Position numbers and translations under genes: made by a program. The notes under the pieces were generated by a model. It made no database searches. It saw nothing but the letters and a program-made list of their open reading frames with translations, and was not told the DNA's origin. A stretch of DNA of 64,000 nucleotides, taken from the NCBI GenBank assembly GCA_965242865.1, contig CBDETK010000013.1, forward strand, positions 3,680,001 through 3,744,000, in the 5' to 3' direction. Origin of the DNA: Candidatus Latescibacterota bacterium. Lineage in GTDB: Bacteria > Latescibacterota > UBA2968 > UBA8231. This document shows, piece by piece, positions 6,098 through 49,652 of the stretch. Position 1 is the stretch's first letter, and each line of letters opens with the position of its first letter.

Positions 6098-6152
6098 ACA
6101 AATCTTCTTTGGATTATCCTTCTGTCTGTGAACACTGTCTAAAGATTAACTC

Positions 6153-6181
6153 AACTTAGCTTTTATATCTACTTATGTCAA
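6153..6181 (-). promoter_or_regulatory. sigma70 promoter for dnaN-recF operon
   Basis: Minus strand TTGACA-N17-TAAGTT ~55 nt upstream of dnaN ATG. Confidence 0.55.
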
Positions 6182-6189
6182 GTTCTATA

Positions 6190-6600
6190 ATATAGTGTCC
6201 CATTTTTTCATAAGAGAACATAAAAGCAGGTGTGTATTAATAAAAATAAAGGTGTGTATAGAAAAAAAAAAAAATACCCACACCATCCTTTCTTATAAAA
6301 TTACACTTCTCTGTGTTCTTTTTTTCTTAATAATTCTAGTTGTACTCGGGATATGTGGATAATCGTCTTACGGATCTATCTCTAAACAACAAAACATATT
6401 GTTAATAATATGTTTATGAGAAAAGAGAATTGATCGAACAGCAAGAAATTATATGTGGATTACTGAGTGGAAAACCCTAATTTTCCACAGATAAAAGTTA
6501 AAAATGACTGTTTTCTTTTGTCACGTAAAGTTATCCACACTGAATCAATACTCAGGCGGGGATAGGTGTGAATAGTTTTCCACTGTCAAATAGGCACTAT
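6190..6600. other. oriC: Replication origin oriC (dnaA-dnaN intergenic): DnaA boxes plus AT-rich DUE
   Basis: Perfect boxes TGTGGATAA 6354-6362 and TTATCCACA 6531-6539; near-perfect TGTGGATTA 6454, TTTTCCACA 6481, TTTTCCACT 6576; very AT-rich 6190-6340; gene-strand switch nearby. Confidence 0.88.
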
Positions 6601-6662
6601 GGTACTAAAAACACAAGACGAAAAGGACCAAGAGGACAGAGGATTAAAGAGGCGGGCTAAGT

Positions 6663-22693: not shown

Positions 22694-23644
22694 CTACACA
22701 TCAAGCTGTCTTTGAATGGGCATCGCCTGTAGATAACCCCGAGTGCGGCTGGACCAGAACAGATAACTAAAGACCAAATCCGGGACGTAGGTTTTCATCA
22801 GCCAGCGGGTCAACCAGCGGATTGGGTAGTGAATCGGCGGCGACAGGGCTAGCTGAAGTGCGATCCGCCGAGGAGAAAATCCAGAGGCCCTGATGAAGTC
22901 CAGCCAGAGTACGGCGTCAAGTTCAGGGTGCTTGCGTAAAAGGACGGGGATTGACTTGCTGCCGTAAGTTTGCATTAAGCGGCAGAGTGGCTCCAATGAA
23001 CGCAAGTGATAGTGGTAGGACAGGGCTTCAGGAGCATAGTAAAGCGGAATACCCGCTAAATGGAGGCGATACCCCAATTCTAGATCTTCGCCGCCATAAG
23101 CAGTGAGATCCTCGTCAAAAAAACCCACGCGGAGCAGGGATGACCGGCGAACCGAGGAGTTGCCGGTGACGAAGCACTTGAAAGGTATGGGCTTTTCCGC
23201 GTCAATTCTGTGAACCCCCCTCCTTTCGAGATAGCGGGTTAGGGATGTAGGGGGAATTTCAGGGGCAAAGCGGATGTTGCCGATAAAAACGGCTTCCGCG
23301 TGGGTTTGATGCCGTTGGGCATGGGCACGGAGGAAATTTATGCCGACGGTCATATCGCTGTCGAGAAAGATGACCAGATCACCGCTGGCGACTTGAAGTG
23401 CTGCGTTGCGTGCCCGAGCTCGTCCCTGATTCTGTTTGTTGCGAATCAACCGCAACCGTAAAGGCGCGACTGCCGCATATAAGCGCTCGGCGTCCAAGTG
23501 AGGAGAGGCGTCGTCCACCACGATGACTTGAATCGCCTCATGGGGATAATTTTGCTGCGACAGGCTTTTAAGTGCTGCTTCGAGGCACTTAGGTTCGCCA
23601 TAGGTAGGCATTACGATACTGAGCGTCAGCGGGGGGGCACTCAT
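22694..23644 (-). CDS. Glycosyltransferase family 2
   Basis: SIVMPTY, VVDDAS, ARN, FLDSD, GGEDLELGYRL. Confidence 0.9.
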   Translation of the reverse strand: MSAPPLTLSIVMPTYGEPKCLEAALKSLSQQNYPHEAIQVIVVDDASPHLDAERLYAAVAPLRLRLIRNKQNQGRARARNAALQVASGDLVIFLDSDMTVGINFLRAHAQRHQTHAEAVFIGNIRFAPEIPPTSLTRYLERRGVHRIDAEKPIPFKCFVTGNSSVRRSSLLRVGFFDEDLTAYGGEDLELGYRLHLAGIPLYYAPEALSYHYHLRSLEPLCRLMQTYGSKSIPVLLRKHPELDAVLWLDFIRASGFSPRRIALQLALSPPIHYPIRWLTRWLMKTYVPDLVFSYLFWSSRTRGYLQAMPIQRQLDV

Positions 23645-24756
23645 GCTAGGGTTGCATAAAGCTGAGTGAGTTGAGCAGTTTCTCGTTCCCAGTTATAGTG
23701 CTGTGCCGCCTGCAAACTCGCCTTAGCACACGCCTCCCGCTGCTCTGCATTGTCCAAAAAAGTGGCGATTTGCTCCCGGATGGCAACGATATCGGTTGGG
23801 TCGACTGTAGATCCGGTATGCGTTTCGCAGACGATACGCTGCATTTCGGGAAAATTGCTAGCTAGGACCGGTAGCCCGGCCATCATATATTCAAAGAGCT
23901 TGTTGGGCAGAGAGTAGTAAAAGCTCTTGCCCGTGCCTTTGATAAGACACAGGCCCAAGTCGGCCGAGCAAGTATAGTTGTGAAGTTGGTGAAAGGGCAC
24001 CCGGGGAATAAAATAGACTTGGTCGTCTAGTCTCCCAGCGCGGACTTGGTTTCGCAGGGCCTGTTCGCTAGGTCCATCCCCAATTAAAACTAGGGCCGCG
24101 GCAAGCCCAGCGGCGGCCTTGATTTGCTCACGTAAGCCATTTTCGGTGAGGAATCCTCCTTGGTAGAGAACAATAGGGCGATCATCGGGCAGGTCCAGCG
24201 TTTCGCGTATCAGGTTGCTTTGGACCTTATGGCGGAATAGCGGCAAATTATGCAGCACAACGACCTCGTCAAGGCCGTAACGGTCCTTGAGTGATTGGGC
24301 GATAGACCCGCTGACGGTTATGACTCGATCTACCCGTCTTATCAGCCGCTGCTCCAGCAAACGCCAGCAGGACCGCATCAGCGGCCGGCTGACCAGTGAG
24401 GATTGTTCGGTCCAAAATTCGTGTGAGTCATAAACGATGGGCCGATCTAGTCGCCGTGCAGCCCGTACTGCTGGCCAAAGCGAGTCTAGGTCGTGGGCGT
24501 GGTAGGCATCCGGCTGGATCTCAACCAGTAGTGAATAAGCTCGTTGCCAAAACAAAGGATAGAGACGGCGCAATGAGAGGCTGCGGTCTAGCGGAATCGG
24601 ATAGACTTCAAAATCGTCCCATCCCTTGAGGGGAGCTGAGTTGAACGAGGAGGCGACAATGACGACTTGGTACCCAGCATGGCGTAGCGAAGTGGCCTCT
24701 CGGTAGATGCGGTAGTCGAAATTCAGGTCGGTAAAGGCGACCATACAGATACGCAT
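23641..24756 (-). CDS. Glycosyltransferase family 4
   Basis: D-x-RI-x-REA, YHAHD, YDSHE, SLPNKLFEYMMAGLPV; likely start MRICMV at 24756. Confidence 0.88.
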   Translation of the reverse strand: MRICMVAFTDLNFDYRIYREATSLRHAGYQVVIVASSFNSAPLKGWDDFEVYPIPLDRSLSLRRLYPLFWQRAYSLLVEIQPDAYHAHDLDSLWPAVRAARRLDRPIVYDSHEFWTEQSSLVSRPLMRSCWRLLEQRLIRRVDRVITVSGSIAQSLKDRYGLDEVVVLHNLPLFRHKVQSNLIRETLDLPDDRPIVLYQGGFLTENGLREQIKAAAGLAAALVLIGDGPSEQALRNQVRAGRLDDQVYFIPRVPFHQLHNYTCSADLGLCLIKGTGKSFYYSLPNKLFEYMMAGLPVLASNFPEMQRIVCETHTGSTVDPTDIVAIREQIATFLDNAEQREACAKASLQAAQHYNWERETAQLTQLYATLA

Positions 24757-24822
24757 GATGTACAAAGGATTAGGCATAAAGGCCAAAAATAAAAGCAGCC
24801 CTTCTAAAGTGGGCTGCTTCTT

Positions 24823-24991
24823 AAAAAAAGAGTGTGGCGGCCAGATGGTGTGATCTTGAAACGCAAGTGAGATCCTCAAACGAGGCGGTGTGGGGAGGTA
24901 GTTTTGAAGATCTCAATGACCCGAAAAGGGAAATCCGAGCTTCGCGGATCAGGATTTTGGCCACGCTATGCGGACCGCCACACTCTATGTT
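24823..24991 (-). ncRNA. Candidate structured ncRNA (~165 nt; 6S-like rod or novel family)
   Basis: 12-bp perfect terminal IR (24829-24840 / 24975-24986), 13-bp internal hairpin (24868-24880 / 24903-24915), minus-strand promoter immediately upstream and U-tract immediately downstream. Confidence 0.6.
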
Positions 24992-24998
24992 GGAAATA

Positions 24999-25027
24999 AA
25001 AATACACACGCTAGATTGTGTTGTCAA
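24999..25027 (-). promoter_or_regulatory. sigma70 promoter of ncRNA candidate with operator in spacer
   Basis: Minus strand TTGACA-N17-TATTTT; spacer carries ACAC-N8-GTGT (25006-25021). Confidence 0.6.
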
Positions 25028-25064
25028 GTGGAAAAACGGATGCTAAGAAAATGATAATGGAGTC

Positions 25065-25093
25065 TTGCACACTTACAAGTGTGTGCATATCTT
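25065..25093 (+). promoter_or_regulatory. sigma70 promoter of XRE gene with palindromic operator
   Basis: TTGCAC-N17-TATCTT overlapped by TGCACAC-N8-GTGTGCA (25066-25087). Confidence 0.6.
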
Positions 25094-25133
25094 AGTAGAG
25101 GAAATGGTTGAAAATAGTTCAGAAGGATCGCAA

Positions 25134-25667
25134 ATGCAGTTTGCTGAAATGATCAAGGAGGCTCGGCTACAAGCCCACCTAAGCCAGCAGAAATTGGCCG
25201 AACAACTCGTGACGGCGCGAAGGCCCAAGGGCGTATGGGCAACCTATATAGGACAAATTGAGAAGGGGGAGAAGGTTCCTTCCGACGAAATATGTATCAA
25301 GTTGGCCGAGGTATTGGGACTCGACTCCGACAAAGTATTGATTGCGGCTTATGAGGCCAAGGCGAGCTCGGAGGAAGGGCGTGCGATCTATGGTAAGATG
25401 ATGCGCTTGCTGTCGGACCCAGTAGTCAACAAGCTCTTGTCTAACAAAGAGCCTTTGGACCCAGCTCTCTTGAAATTGCTCTCTAATCCAGAAATCGTGG
25501 CACTGCTTGGGGATCAACCGTGGATAGAGGCAGTTGCCCGAGTACATGCGAACCAGAAGGAACGCGATGTATTGTCCCTGCTCGCTTTAGCAGAGGCGAT
25601 GGACGATAAACAGTGGAATATGATAATGGGCCTTATAGAGACTTGGGGCTTAGGGCTACCTAGTTGA
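25134..25667 (+). CDS. XRE-family HTH transcriptional regulator
   Basis: IKEAR-x4-LSQQKLA...YIGQIEKGEKVPS...KLAEVLG; helical C-terminal domain of unknown function. Confidence 0.85.
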   Translation: MQFAEMIKEARLQAHLSQQKLAEQLVTARRPKGVWATYIGQIEKGEKVPSDEICIKLAEVLGLDSDKVLIAAYEAKASSEEGRAIYGKMMRLLSDPVVNKLLSNKEPLDPALLKLLSNPEIVALLGDQPWIEAVARVHANQKERDVLSLLALAEAMDDKQWNMIMGLIETWGLGLPS

Positions 25668-25716
25668 GGAGGCCGATTCGCTTAGCGGGGGGAATCACAG
25701 CAAAAGTGGGAGGGAG

Positions 25717-26205
25717 TTAGAAGTCGGGTAGTTGGTACTCGCCGCGCTCAATGGCTTGCTCTAACTCTTGGTGGAAGGTGCTGTCTAAGTGGGAAGTAAT
25801 TTTCCAACCACTAGAATCGCGAAGAAAATAAAAGAATGGAGACGTGCGCTCATCGCCTATCGTCGAGGAATCGAAGAGTAAGTAACCGATGCGCTCGTTG
25901 ATGATGCGCTCTTCGGCGATTTCTCGACGCAGGTGAGTTTTTATCTCGGCTGGCGTCTTTTGCTGCCATAGCTTTACAAAGCTCTGACGATCTTCTCCCT
26001 CCATTTGCGAAGAATTGAAACATTCCCAAAGCAAGTCAAAGTCGCGGTTTTCTAGCGCGTATTTGTAGGTCTGGAAGGTCTGGGCCGGGTGAGAGAAGCG
26101 TTGGTCTATGTCTTCGCTATTGCAGCCGTGAAGGAGGGCGAGGTAAAGAAATAGTTGTAAGGCCATAGTGTGCAGCGCACGGGTCAGTATCTTGAGCAAC
26201 GTCAA
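25717..26205 (-). CDS. Hypothetical lipoprotein (NTF2-like/DUF4878-like fold possible)
   Basis: Hydrophobic N-terminus with LHGC lipobox; PAQTF..Y..AL...D and GWKI patterns. Confidence 0.6.
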   Translation of the reverse strand: MTLLKILTRALHTMALQLFLYLALLHGCNSEDIDQRFSHPAQTFQTYKYALENRDFDLLWECFNSSQMEGEDRQSFVKLWQQKTPAEIKTHLRREIAEERIINERIGYLLFDSSTIGDERTSPFFYFLRDSSGWKITSHLDSTFHQELEQAIERGEYQLPDF

Positions 26206-26225: not shown

Positions 26226-26921
26226 CTACGGCCCCTCAGATTGGGCTTCAGCACTTGCTTTATTAACGAGCAATTCGATTGCGTCCCGTAGCCGAGCGGC
26301 CTCTTCGTATTCTTCGCAGATAATGGCCTGTTGTAGCTGGTGCTGAAGCAGACTGAGTTCGTCCTTCTCTTCTTTGAGGGGCTGTTGAGTTTCGGCTTCT
26401 TCAGCGTTCCGCTTCAAGGGGCGGATATTGAGCGATTTGGAAATCTGCGCTTCAAAATCATAGAAACGGTTCAGGGTGTGTTCAACGTCCAAGTCGGTCT
26501 CCAAAGGCTCCAAGCCCAGCTCGTCCAGCAACCTATGAGAAACGTAGATAGGCGCGTCAGTACGCAAGGCCAAAGCAATCGCGTCGCTGGGACGTGCGTC
26601 GAGGTCTTTTATTGTGTGATCCTTCTCAATGACGACCCTCGCGTAGTAAATTGAGTGGCGCACGTTGTGAATGACAACTTGGCGGACACTCACCGCAAGG
26701 TAGTCGACCATAGAAGAGAGCAAGTCGTAAGAAATCGGACGTATGGGCCCATCGTCTTCTAGCCGCATCCGAATGGCCGCGGCCTCAAACTCGCCAATGG
26801 GAATGGGCAAGAGCCGCGGCAGTTGACCTTCCTTCTCGCTCAACCAGACCAAGGGCTTGTCATCTCGCAAGTAGGGACTAACCTTGACCACGGTCATCTC
26901 GACTAAAGAGGTATTACTCAT
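26226..26921 (-). CDS. Bifunctional nuclease (DUF151) with C-terminal UVR domain, copy 1
   Basis: LPIPIGEFEAAAI, RPISYDL, DARPSDAIALALR, AIICEEYEEAARLRD. Confidence 0.9.
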   Translation of the reverse strand: MSNTSLVEMTVVKVSPYLRDDKPLVWLSEKEGQLPRLLPIPIGEFEAAAIRMRLEDDGPIRPISYDLLSSMVDYLAVSVRQVVIHNVRHSIYYARVVIEKDHTIKDLDARPSDAIALALRTDAPIYVSHRLLDELGLEPLETDLDVEHTLNRFYDFEAQISKSLNIRPLKRNAEEAETQQPLKEEKDELSLLQHQLQQAIICEEYEEAARLRDAIELLVNKASAEAQSEGP

Positions 26922-27526
26922 TAATCATCCCTGTCGAGGCGGCTGATCTCGTCGCGCAGCCGCGCCGCCTCCTCGTAGATCTCTTCGGCAACAGCTTGGT
27001 CCATGCGTCTTTTGAGTCGTTCTAATTGGCTGATGGCTGGGGGGGCGATGACGGGCGGTGCGGCCACGGGTCTGGCGAGGGCTTCAACTTTAGTTGGAAC
27101 CCATTGGTCATCGTCGGAGCGGACGCAGCCCACCTCTTTGAGGATTTCGACCGCGGCGTAGATCGGTGCGCGAAAGCGCAAGGCCAAGGCAATTGCATCG
27201 CTGGGACGTGCGTCGATCGTGTGAGTCTTGCCCTCGTCGTCGACGAGGTGAACCTCAGCGTAGTACGTTCCCTCATGTGAGTTAAAGTAAGTGATTTCGA
27301 CCCGGGCTACCCGAGCATGGACATTGGCGAGAATCTGATGGGCTAGGTCGTAGCTGATGGGGCGCACTGATTGCCGCTTGCTGTGGGCTATAGAAATGGC
27401 GGCCGCCTCAAAGCGGCCAATGACAATGTGCAGATAATAATTGCCCTCAACTTCTTTGAGTACTACTTCAGGGTATAAAGACTGAGATTTGCTGCTTAAA
27501 ACCTCCTTGACTTCCATCAGAACCAT
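26921..27526 (-). CDS. Bifunctional nuclease (DUF151) with C-terminal UVR domain, copy 2
   Basis: IGRFEAAAI, RPISYDL, DARPSDAIALALR, AVAEEIYEEAARLRDEI. Confidence 0.9.
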   Translation of the reverse strand: MVLMEVKEVLSSKSQSLYPEVVLKEVEGNYYLHIVIGRFEAAAISIAHSKRQSVRPISYDLAHQILANVHARVARVEITYFNSHEGTYYAEVHLVDDEGKTHTIDARPSDAIALALRFRAPIYAAVEILKEVGCVRSDDDQWVPTKVEALARPVAAPPVIAPPAISQLERLKRRMDQAVAEEIYEEAARLRDEISRLDRDD

Positions 27527-27597
27527 AGCGGTGCATCGCGGTTTAGTGGGCTGCTGTCGTTTAACGTGTGAAATATAATACGGCCTCAAAGTAAGTG

Positions 27598-27777
27598 TCA
27601 ACCGACGGGTGCTTCTTGGCCATCCGGCAAATCGTCCTCTTTGTTATTCAGCTTCAACTCAAGTTCTGCGAGTTGGCGGCCTAGTTCCCCGGTGCGCCGG
27701 TTTAGGCGCATCAGATAGGCAAAAAGCACGGCCCACACGGCCGCGAAGGCGGCAAACAAGTAGTGGAGATTGTCCAT
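27598..27777 (-). CDS. ccmD: Heme exporter protein CcmD (not in ORF track)
   Basis: MDNLHYLFAAFAAVWAVLFAYLMRLNRRTGELGRQLAELE...APVG*, 59 aa, single TM plus charged tail, directly after ccmC. Confidence 0.8.
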   Translation of the reverse strand: MDNLHYLFAAFAAVWAVLFAYLMRLNRRTGELGRQLAELELKLNNKEDDLPDGQEAPVG

Positions 27778-49553: not shown

Positions 49554-49652
49554 GGGAGCGGATGCGTGCCTGGTGGCTGTCGCGGACTTCAAATCCGTTG
49601 CGGCGTAGCGAGAGTTGCGCTGGGTGGGTTCGATTCCCACACGTTCCCGCCA
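49554..49652 (+). tRNA. selC: tRNA-Sec (TCA)
   Basis: GCGGA-CTTCAAA-TCCGT anticodon arm, D-loop TGGT, long variable arm with GAGA loop, GTGGG-TTCGATT-CCCAC, GCCA end. Confidence 0.93.

Follow-up and report, generated by a model that had tools for sequence, protein, structure and literature searches.

What do two copies of one inverted repeat do when each sits in one of two back-to-back promoters? A 64,000-nucleotide stretch of DNA from Candidatus Latescibacterota bacterium (assembly GCA_965242865.1, contig CBDETK010000013.1, positions 3,680,001 to 3,744,000; hereafter the window) raises this question at a locus that reads, along the plus strand, as a gene for a GT4-family glycosyltransferase (minus strand), an intrinsic terminator (minus), a folded non-coding stretch (minus), a 140-bp control region and a gene for an XRE-family regulator (plus). 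An earlier note on this DNA had proposed a phage-switch-like arrangement in which the XRE protein represses both its own gene and the divergent non-coding RNA. Our analysis makes it reasonably probable that the locus is a transcription-control module, in which XRE would act on palindromes to control itself, the RNA unit and a wider regulon; the palindromes themselves are almost certainly functional cis-elements.

An inverted repeat in each of two divergent promoters

The RNA promoter (24999-25027, minus strand) has its −35 box TTGACA at 25027-25022, a 17-nt spacer and its −10 box TATTTT at 25004-24999, giving 10 of 12 consensus matches in our promoter scan, and it is kept in all lineages that have the RNA, 8 to ~115 nt from the RNA core. 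A putative promoter for the XRE gene, read from the sequence, lies at 25065-25093 on the plus strand (TTGCAC 25065-25070, N17, TATCTT 25088-25093). Its hexamers are conserved in the genus alignment, and distant XRE orthologues have TTGACA-N17-TAGACT or TAGGCT at the equivalent place. The scan of 24500-26000 returned four promoter-like sites, against 1.6 +/- 1.2 in shuffled sequence, and the XRE promoter was absent from its list; a manual count gave 7 of 12 consensus matches. The pair of back-to-back sigma70 promoters described in the earlier note is therefore secure on the minus strand and present, yet weak, on the plus strand.

Reading the sequence confirmed that an inverted repeat lies in or overlaps each promoter spacer, at 25006-25021 and 25069-25084. 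The first, which we call putative operator O-R (ACAC-GCTAGATT-GTGT, N8), fills the spacer of the RNA promoter; the second, putative operator O-X, overlaps the −35 box and spacer of the XRE promoter (ACAC-TTACAA-GTGT at 25069-25082, with an N8 reading that extends to 25084), and the two centres are 62-63 bp apart. The CACAC-N8-GTGT core given previously was right as to the repeat and needed correction as to its spacing: the refined motif is a 14-bp palindrome, ACAC-N6-GTGT, of which the N8 form is a variant at the RNA promoter of the window's genus. Sites at distant orthologues are nearly all N6, and O-R can itself be read as N6 with one mismatch (GCGT). The operator form is thus four fixed outer bases per side around an A/T-rich, variable centre.

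The word alone is not rare. A genome-wide scan, which the earlier note had suggested as a check, found ACAC-N8-GTGT 27 times in the 6.0-Mb genome against ~23 expected from tetramer frequencies, which is chance frequency, and ACAC-N6-GTGT 15 times, with most matches to either form inside long open frames; the scan nevertheless led to the mraZ and dnaA-dnaN sites described below. What exceeds chance is the occurrence of two copies 63 bp apart, each in a promoter, together with their conservation. Among 20 same-genus loci, 19 align across both promoters; in all 19 the arms of both sites are letter-identical, and the whole 29-bp RNA promoter, spacer included, is identical in these aligned genus genomes, while the 35 bp between the two −35 boxes vary. 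A sigma-70 spacer has no reason of its own for such invariance.

At loci L043, L044 and L076-L078, and in other genera, the RNA core is preceded by a third palindrome (O3) at a distance of 22-55 nt. The g9 copy overlaps a TATAAT box 7 nt ahead of the core, a hint of an additional, proximal promoter for the RNA; the subclade to which the window belongs has lost the O3 segment by deletion.

The palindrome follows the XRE gene across the family

We compared related loci in two sets, one of 40 loci assembled on the XRE gene and one of 47 loci from a covariance-model search for the RNA. A site lies within 150 nt upstream of the XRE start codon in 36 of the 40 XRE loci, and the RNA stands divergently upstream of XRE in 35 of them. 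Conversely, XRE adjoins the RNA in 34 of the 47 RNA loci, and in every one of these 34 the 330 nt upstream of the RNA contain one, two or three sites, as against two of the 13 RNA loci without XRE (none in the other 11). Counted by genus, a site is found in 9/9 XRE-adjacent genera and 0/7 XRE-less ones, with genus g11 mixed, although the genera are related and these co-occurrence counts overstate their independence. The back-to-back arrangement of XRE and RNA around a shared control region is conserved across species, and the synteny comparison of related metagenome-assembled genomes that the earlier note had called for ties the motif to XRE across genera.

At the 11 XRE-less RNA loci without a site, the RNA has an equivalent promoter (TTGACT/A, N17-18, TACATT) whose spacer is variable and holds no palindrome, and locus L058 has two sites and an XRE gene with no RNA.

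A lambda-repressor-like domain joined to a domain with no recognised fold

The XRE gene (25134-25667, plus strand) encodes 177 aa, with an N-terminal HTH_3 domain and a C-terminal helical domain. It starts at ATG 25134, with GAAGGA upstream at 25122-25127; an in-frame upstream ATG at 25104 was ruled out as the start, being out of frame in the close relatives L002, L003 and L012. HTH_3 (PF01381) is the sole Pfam family in the protein (42.9 bits against a cut-off of 23, E 5.1e-11), an NCBIfam search gave only weak, sub-threshold helix-turn-helix (HTH) matches, and 117 related clusters among 5.8 billion proteins carried HTH families only and generic names at most.

In an AlphaFold model (predicted local distance difference test score, pLDDT, 87), searched against known folds, the N-terminal domain has the five-helix, lambda-repressor-like DNA-binding fold. 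It matches P22 c2 (Z 11.3, root-mean-square deviation (rmsd) 2.0 over 65 residues), ImmR (Z 10.9), DdrO (Z 10.5) and the 434 repressor (Z 10.0, rmsd 2.1 over 63 residues). Fold lists for the whole protein were filled by the HTH domain, with partial matches to SinR, DdrO and ImmR. The C-terminal 100 residues modelled alone (pLDDT 83) had no counterpart in the PDB (best Z 4.1, rmsd 10.8); should the fold form only in the dimer, the monomer model used in this search may have no meaning. The helical C-terminal domain that had been noted as unrecognised is so in both respects, having neither a Pfam family nor a PDB fold.

The protein was predicted to form a symmetric homodimer, mostly through residues 78-175, with a score of 0.55 against 0.00 for the best control; this mark was reached by 20/30 solved homo-pairs and 1/23 single chains, and, as the run used an alignment of our own, the calibration is only rough. 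Contact agreement across the runs was at least 91% and pLDDT at least 81. Together with the co-occurrence of palindrome and gene, the predicted dimer is indirect support for the binding of a dimer to a palindrome. The window's gene list holds no partner protease or antagonist gene beside XRE.

We regard the XRE protein as the likely binder of the palindromes and, with a little less assurance, think that it probably represses both local promoters. This second reading follows from where the sites lie, since one overlaps the −35 box and spacer of its promoter and the other fills a 17-nt spacer, positions at which a bound protein would block RNA polymerase.

The divergent partner is a structured, abundant RNA

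The RNA lies at 24828-24988 on the minus strand (covariance-model match 24824-24988; expressed core ~24982 to 24828). Its minimum free energy is −78.4 kcal/mol, against −48.4 +/- 3.9 for shuffled sequences (z −7.7), and covariance-model scores are 84-196 bits on the minus strand against 20-36 bits on the plus strand. A protein-coding reading was ruled out by frame-breaking 1-nt indels between close relatives. The RNA folds into four helices: a 13-bp closing stem that joins its ends, an inner stem P2 and two hairpins, P3 and P4. Hairpin P3 (24919-24939, minus strand) has a C-rich loop, UUUCCCUUUU, of the form UUCCC(C)UUU, and hairpin P4 (24869-24914, minus strand) has a 22-nt C-rich loop at 24881-24902 with ACCUCC, like the 16S 3' end; the P4 loop contains ACCUCCCCACACCGCCUCG and is invariant across most genera.

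The stems are supported by covariation. In a model-fitted alignment of 33 sequences, which leans towards the model, 94.8% of cells were paired and 20/36 pairs had changed on both sides, a level that none of 500 shuffles reached, while slid controls paired at most 50% of cells. The P3 stem covaries (CUCGG/UCGGG, CCCGG/CCGGG, UCCGG/CCGGA), as does P2, which stood outside that count (CCGCAAA/UUUGCGG, CCGUAAA/UUUACGG, GGUAGUC/GACUACC). In loci L018 and L019 (also L040 and L041), from two species, 11 nt of the closing stem's 3' strand are duplicated in tandem, GGCCGCCACAT then GGCCGCCACAC, so that the 5' strand has two alternative partners.

The RNA belongs to no Rfam family: a permissive search of 24700-25150 against all 4227 families gave six matches, all with E of at least 1.1 and far under their gathering scores, and none of the six from the known small RNA (sRNA) families with C-rich loops (cuckoo/ar14, 6C, RsaE). 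Of 63 other genomes in its GTDB family, 46 (16 genera) carry it, each as a single copy, and none of 87 genomes from 13 other families does, in a search run under stricter filters that may have lost weak matches; within the covariance-model search it is confined to this one Latescibacterota family.

We read its expression from contigs (not reads) in four runs of four studies, sponge metatranscriptomes in which depths were summed over strains; several isolate names among the related loci also look sponge-derived. When words were sampled from a 1-kb query, many RNA-library runs contained 7-14% of them. Contigs cover ~24828-24968 at summed depths of ~25,000-170,000 (run X2), 1,400-2,300 (X3), 340-880 (X4) and 490-870 (X12). 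XRE reached a depth of 3-4, in X12 only, and GT4 a depth of 72, in X2 only; the RNA core exceeds its neighbours in contig depth by a factor of 100 to over 1000, which makes the RNA a likely abundant, non-ribosomal transcript of sponge symbionts. DNA carry-over is possible, and the contrast with the flanks argues against it. The promoter region, the terminator and most of XRE in three of the four runs had no contig cover, which we do not read as an absence of transcription.

In X3 and X4 the contig goes on, in the sequence of a relative, as far as the equivalent of position 24982, where it passes into Illumina adapter and so marks the end of a molecule. This end lies 17 nt below the −10 box and ~10 nt below the expected transcription start, and in most other genera the RNA promoter is ~100 nt upstream of the conserved core; together these suggest 5' processing. 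The terminator stretch falls outside the abundant species in the contigs, whose ends may reflect strain variation. One high-depth contig in X2 joins 24966 back to 24839 with five extra letters (24839-24966). The join may have arisen in assembly, from the inverted repeat of the closing stem, or may reflect a molecule that is permuted or concatenated.

The RNA is linked to downstream glycosyltransferase genes

Directly downstream of the RNA lies the GT4 gene (23641-24756, minus strand; Pfam Glyco_transf_4 and Glycos_transf_1), next after which comes a GT2 gene (22694-23644). Between RNA and GT4 stands the intrinsic terminator (24785-24822, minus strand), a hairpin with a U-run, ~30 nt before the GT4 start codon; it was folded, and hairpin and U-run recur in relatives. 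In 46 of the 47 RNA loci GT4 follows on the RNA's own strand after a gap of 53-270 nt, while the gene upstream of the RNA varies, being XRE, a HEAT-repeat-like gene or a homologue of a lipoprotein-like open reading frame (ORF) of the window. In G122 that homologue is the RNA's immediate upstream neighbour and XRE is missing from the gap, an arrangement which indicates that XRE was inserted or lost exactly at the junction of RNA and ORF. In X2 the contig of depth 72 extends from GT4 as far as the U-run of a relative's terminator; with the ~30-nt gap between terminator and GT4, this points to GT4-GT2 probably being read by terminator read-through from the RNA promoter.

These neighbours could also be accounted for if the RNA were mainly a cis-acting leader of a GT4-GT2 operon, riboswitch-like or an attenuator, with the XRE-controlled promoter as the operon promoter and the abundant species as a terminated or processed leader. 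The conserved position before the same gene is what a leader would have, and the RNA adjoins GT4 more consistently than it adjoins XRE; its layout is aptamer-like, combining a closing stem and a junction of several helices with loop letters that do not vary, and the terminator follows the closing stem after 7-12 nt. The short gap in this genus and the X2 contig fit as well. However, no Rfam riboswitch matched, we saw no alternative anti-terminator pairing on inspection by eye, and a core so much deeper than GT4 would be unusual for a leader fragment. In genus g10, moreover, ~100 nt with conserved TTTGACC words lie between terminator and GT4 and could be GT4's own promoter, and an abundant stable RNA may precede a protein gene without regulating it, as E. 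coli 6S RNA precedes ygfA. We consider the leader reading rather unlikely.

An RNA that acts in trans, its C-rich loops pairing with G-rich ribosome-binding sites, is a possibility that we hold tentatively, and a role as a protein sponge is a distinctly fainter one. The 3' end of 16S in this genome is GGAUCACCUCCUUUCU, a canonical tail, and Shine-Dalgarno sites are used at 36% of starts against a 10% background, on crude start calls. At G000 C13 ~4039230-4039262, the start region GGCGGGTGTGGGGGAG before an ATG is nearly complementary to the P4 loop (−28.3 kcal/mol, fourth of 3,789 start regions). A stretch at G000 C13 ~4348113-4348135 shares 21/23 letters with the P4-loop sequence; it lies inside a terminator-like hairpin between genes, and we judged the likeness to be chance.

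Further sites upstream of mraZ and in the origin region

Three intergenic matches elsewhere in the genome led to sites beyond the XRE-RNA locus. Upstream of mraZ, outside the window, is a tandem pair of ACAC-N6-GTGT sites (G000 C13 ~1239419-1239453; L108 1519-1558). Both sites are kept in 24/24 aligned genus genomes, 21-22 bp apart and with one mismatch at most, and both are perfect in 18 of these, with 23 different spacers; such a combination of fixed arms and free centre is a protein-site signature. The pair lies ~50-90 bp upstream of the −35 box of the mraZ promoter, which is itself followed by three GTGG-type repeats that resemble MraZ boxes.

Across the family we compared 38 regions upstream of mraZ (40 fetched, in two of which a contig end left only 2-3 bases; three g10 genomes stayed out of the comparison, and two genomes had no mraZ match). 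The pair is present at −177 to −223 in 11 of the 38, all from the XRE-bearing genera g8, g11, g15 and g20, and is absent from all 15 regions that belong to genera where no XRE turned up (g6, g10, g12, g13, g14, g16, g17, g19).

A single ACAC-N6-GTGT site lies inside the window, at 6303-6316, in the AT-rich, oriC-like spacer between dnaA and dnaN, among DnaA-box-like TTATCCACA words. It is a strict match in 22/25 genus genomes; as the surrounding DNA is itself conserved, this is the weaker evidence. The spacer (6098-6662), which is probably oriC, holds several TTATCCACA-like words and two AGGTGTGTAT repeats at ~6229 and ~6251. The XRE-RNA locus is ~19 kb from dnaA/dnaN, and its neighbours, among them sucD, glycosyltransferases and ccm genes, are housekeeping genes by Pfam and the gene list, so that an origin-proximal core region without prophage genes, as the earlier note had it, is what we find.

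The compact regulator-RNA module that the same note had envisaged did not survive. The RNA occurs without XRE in seven genera and is linked more tightly to GT4 than to XRE, so the module is not self-contained, and the presence of one palindrome also at mraZ and between dnaA and dnaN points to a small regulon rather than a closed two-gene switch.

A proposed control module, and the readings that compete with it

We propose that XRE, with its 434/P22-type HTH and new helical dimerisation domain, most likely binds as a dimer to ACAC-N6-GTGT. Occupancy of O-X would repress XRE at its own weak promoter, and occupancy of O-R would repress the RNA unit at the strong divergent promoter. That promoter would drive a stable, very abundant structured RNA of ~155-165 nt, with read-through of the terminator probably supplying GT4-GT2 expression. 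Given the pair at mraZ, a gene of the dcw cell-division cluster, and the dnaA-dnaN site, XRE probably runs a small regulon for envelope and division. The RNA, being more widespread than XRE, would most likely act in trans, by C-rich loop pairing or by protein binding. A bolder version, in which XRE is a growth or cell-cycle master regulator of sponge symbionts that couples the RNA, envelope glycosyltransferases, mraZ/dcw and the replication origin, with the RNA as its output arm, an anti-Shine-Dalgarno mimic damping translation globally, seems to us improbable.

Several observations weigh against the proposal. The extreme abundance of the RNA in situ implies that any repression is weak or relieved there; the depths behind it are contig depths summed over strains, and the 24828 end is the point where strains begin to differ and may be an assembly break. 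The XRE promoter, as noted, is weak. Local operator spacing ranges over 62-68 bp across genera (other genera have as many as three, at intervals of 64-68 bp), so that the placement on one DNA face claimed earlier, which suits the ~63 bp found here, is not conserved. The motif is missing from four of the 40 XRE loci: L054-56, a distant XRE subgroup (34-38% identity) with a 27-residue insertion in the C-terminal domain and no RNA alongside, and L060, a Ruminococcus match to the HTH part only. The XRE-bearing genera may form one clade; five of them (g7, g9, g18, g21, g22) lack the mraZ pair; and L101 and L104, of genus g11, keep palindromes with no XRE adjacent. Nor did the pairing model gain from a target search, in which the P4 loop found ~9 non-self 12-mers against ~12 expected by chance, or from duplex energies over 3,789 crude translation start regions, which averaged −11.3 against a background of −12.2; the start regions of XRE, GT4 and mraZ had rank fractions of 0.96, 0.95 and 0.37, low values meaning strong pairing.

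XRE might bind the palindromes and have another effect, activating or fine-tuning the RNA promoter and mraZ, or repressing only itself. The RNA is high in situ while XRE mRNA is present, and the distance of the mraZ sites from the −35 box is typical of activators. Regulators divergent from an sRNA, such as OxyR-OxyS, GcvA-GcvB and SgrR-SgrS, often activate it or are needed for it. In AbmR-Mcr11 the product of the divergent abmR is reported to be needed for stable expression of Mcr11 (PMC7064933). Against this, O-R fills the 17-nt spacer between near-consensus hexamers (10/12), a promoter that needs no activator and at which a bound dimer would clash with polymerase, and in XRE-less genera an equally good promoter that has no site drives the RNA. 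We consider these alternatives improbable.

The palindromes might instead be bound by another factor, or act through DNA structure, as supercoiling-sensitive alternating purine-pyrimidine ACAC/GTGT, with XRE a mere neighbour. The sites kept without an adjacent XRE at L101 and L104 would suit this; those genomes have only an HTH-similar paralogue, located elsewhere, with no strict site upstream. Paralogues that share the invariant GVWxTYxGQxEKG helix with XRE have no strict site upstream, and none lies within 220 nt upstream of the relocated XRE-like paralogues in G114, G126, G121 and G083. At L054-L056 another conserved upstream palindrome, around ACGAATCGT, replaces ACAC-N6-GTGT. Yet the motif follows XRE with or without the RNA (L058), it is missing from the RNA and mraZ promoters in all genera without XRE, and its 4+6+4 layout fits a dimeric, 434-type HTH, which together leave this reading a slim chance.

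That the RNA is the family's divergent, RNA-polymerase-binding 6S RNA is very unlikely: tmRNA, RNase P RNA and signal recognition particle RNA were located elsewhere in the genome and 6S was not, and the size, single copy, pairing of the 5' with the 3' end, very high abundance, probably processed ends and downstream protein gene (ygfA follows ssrS in E. coli) are 6S-like, but the RNA folds as a junction with two hairpins and at most ~1 nt on its 3' side, not as a rod with a two-sided central bubble, and its most conserved part is a 22-nt terminal loop, while RF00013 had no match in the window region or the genome and nothing over cut-off in 151 phylum genomes (two weak sub-threshold matches, in other families), an uninformative absence for a model that detects 4-5 of 14 control genomes.

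Comparison with known systems

The control region resembles that of phages 434 and P22, which also have this HTH fold, divergent promoters with operators inside them, and tandem sites like the pair upstream of mraZ. The operators of 434 have the same 4+6+4 layout, ACAATNNNNATTGT (PMC1636474), with ACAA arms where ours have ACAC. The comparison with a phage switch holds for the DNA-binding fold and the operator layout and fails for the switch itself. CI and Cro are two mutually antagonistic divergent repressors; here the divergent partner has no conserved reading frame and folds as RNA, so no second repressor protein is present. Nor are there three adjacent shared operators in a prophage: the window has two sites, set apart from each other as they are in other genera, in a non-prophage context, and the C-terminal domain of XRE is unrelated to that of CI.

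Pairs of the AbmR-Mcr11 type likewise set a transcription-factor gene and an RNA gene back to back around one control region, but their factors belong to other families and are mostly activators, whereas here the XRE site lies in the promoter spacer and the RNA persists without the factor in seven genera. SinR, DdrO and ImmR resemble XRE in joining an N-terminal HTH_3 to a helical C-terminal dimer part; the C-terminal domain of XRE differs in having no fold match, and no partner protease or antagonist gene stands alongside.

The hairpin loops with C-runs or CCUCC recall the NfeR1/'cuckoo' and 6C RNAs. NfeR1 is reported to pair with ribosome-binding sites through CCUCCUCCC in each hairpin and to affect cell-cycle mRNAs (10.1101/2025.11.14.688489), and actinobacterial 6C RNA is described as abundant, stable and linked to cell division (PMC5014011). 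The present RNA differs in having no Rfam match, greater length, the 13-bp end-to-end closing stem and no target above chance.

Autoregulated XRE repressors, regulators divergent from an sRNA and RNAs with C-rich loops are all known kinds. What is new is the RNA family, the C-terminal domain of XRE, the operator sequence, and, in an uncultured phylum, a single palindrome that ties together the RNA with its glycosyltransferases, mraZ and the region of the origin; a literature search, with subscription journals and supplements outside its coverage, found no paper describing the RNA or the regulator. Almost nothing is known of gene regulation in the uncultured Latescibacterota, for which the locus yields an operator sequence open to test, a candidate regulator whose dimerisation domain is new, and an initial outline of a regulon. 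Its value lies in new members and direct testability, not in a new principle.

Other features of the window

The window's genome comprises 6.0 Mb in 13 contigs at 60.6% G+C, and the XRE-RNA region was recovered in 22 of 24 other same-genus genomes at 84-92% identity. The lipoprotein-like ORF (25717-26205) encodes 162 aa. Beyond it, 26226-26921 and 26921-27601 are adjacent paralogous genes with a bifunctional-nuclease domain and a C-terminal UVR motif, the first identified by Pfam and the second by likeness of its translation. A search of the whole window at Rfam gathering scores returned only tRNA-Gln and tRNA-Sec. The tRNA-Sec gene, at 49554-49648, scored 70 bits against a gathering score of 47, and its presence indicates that the organism probably uses selenocysteine.

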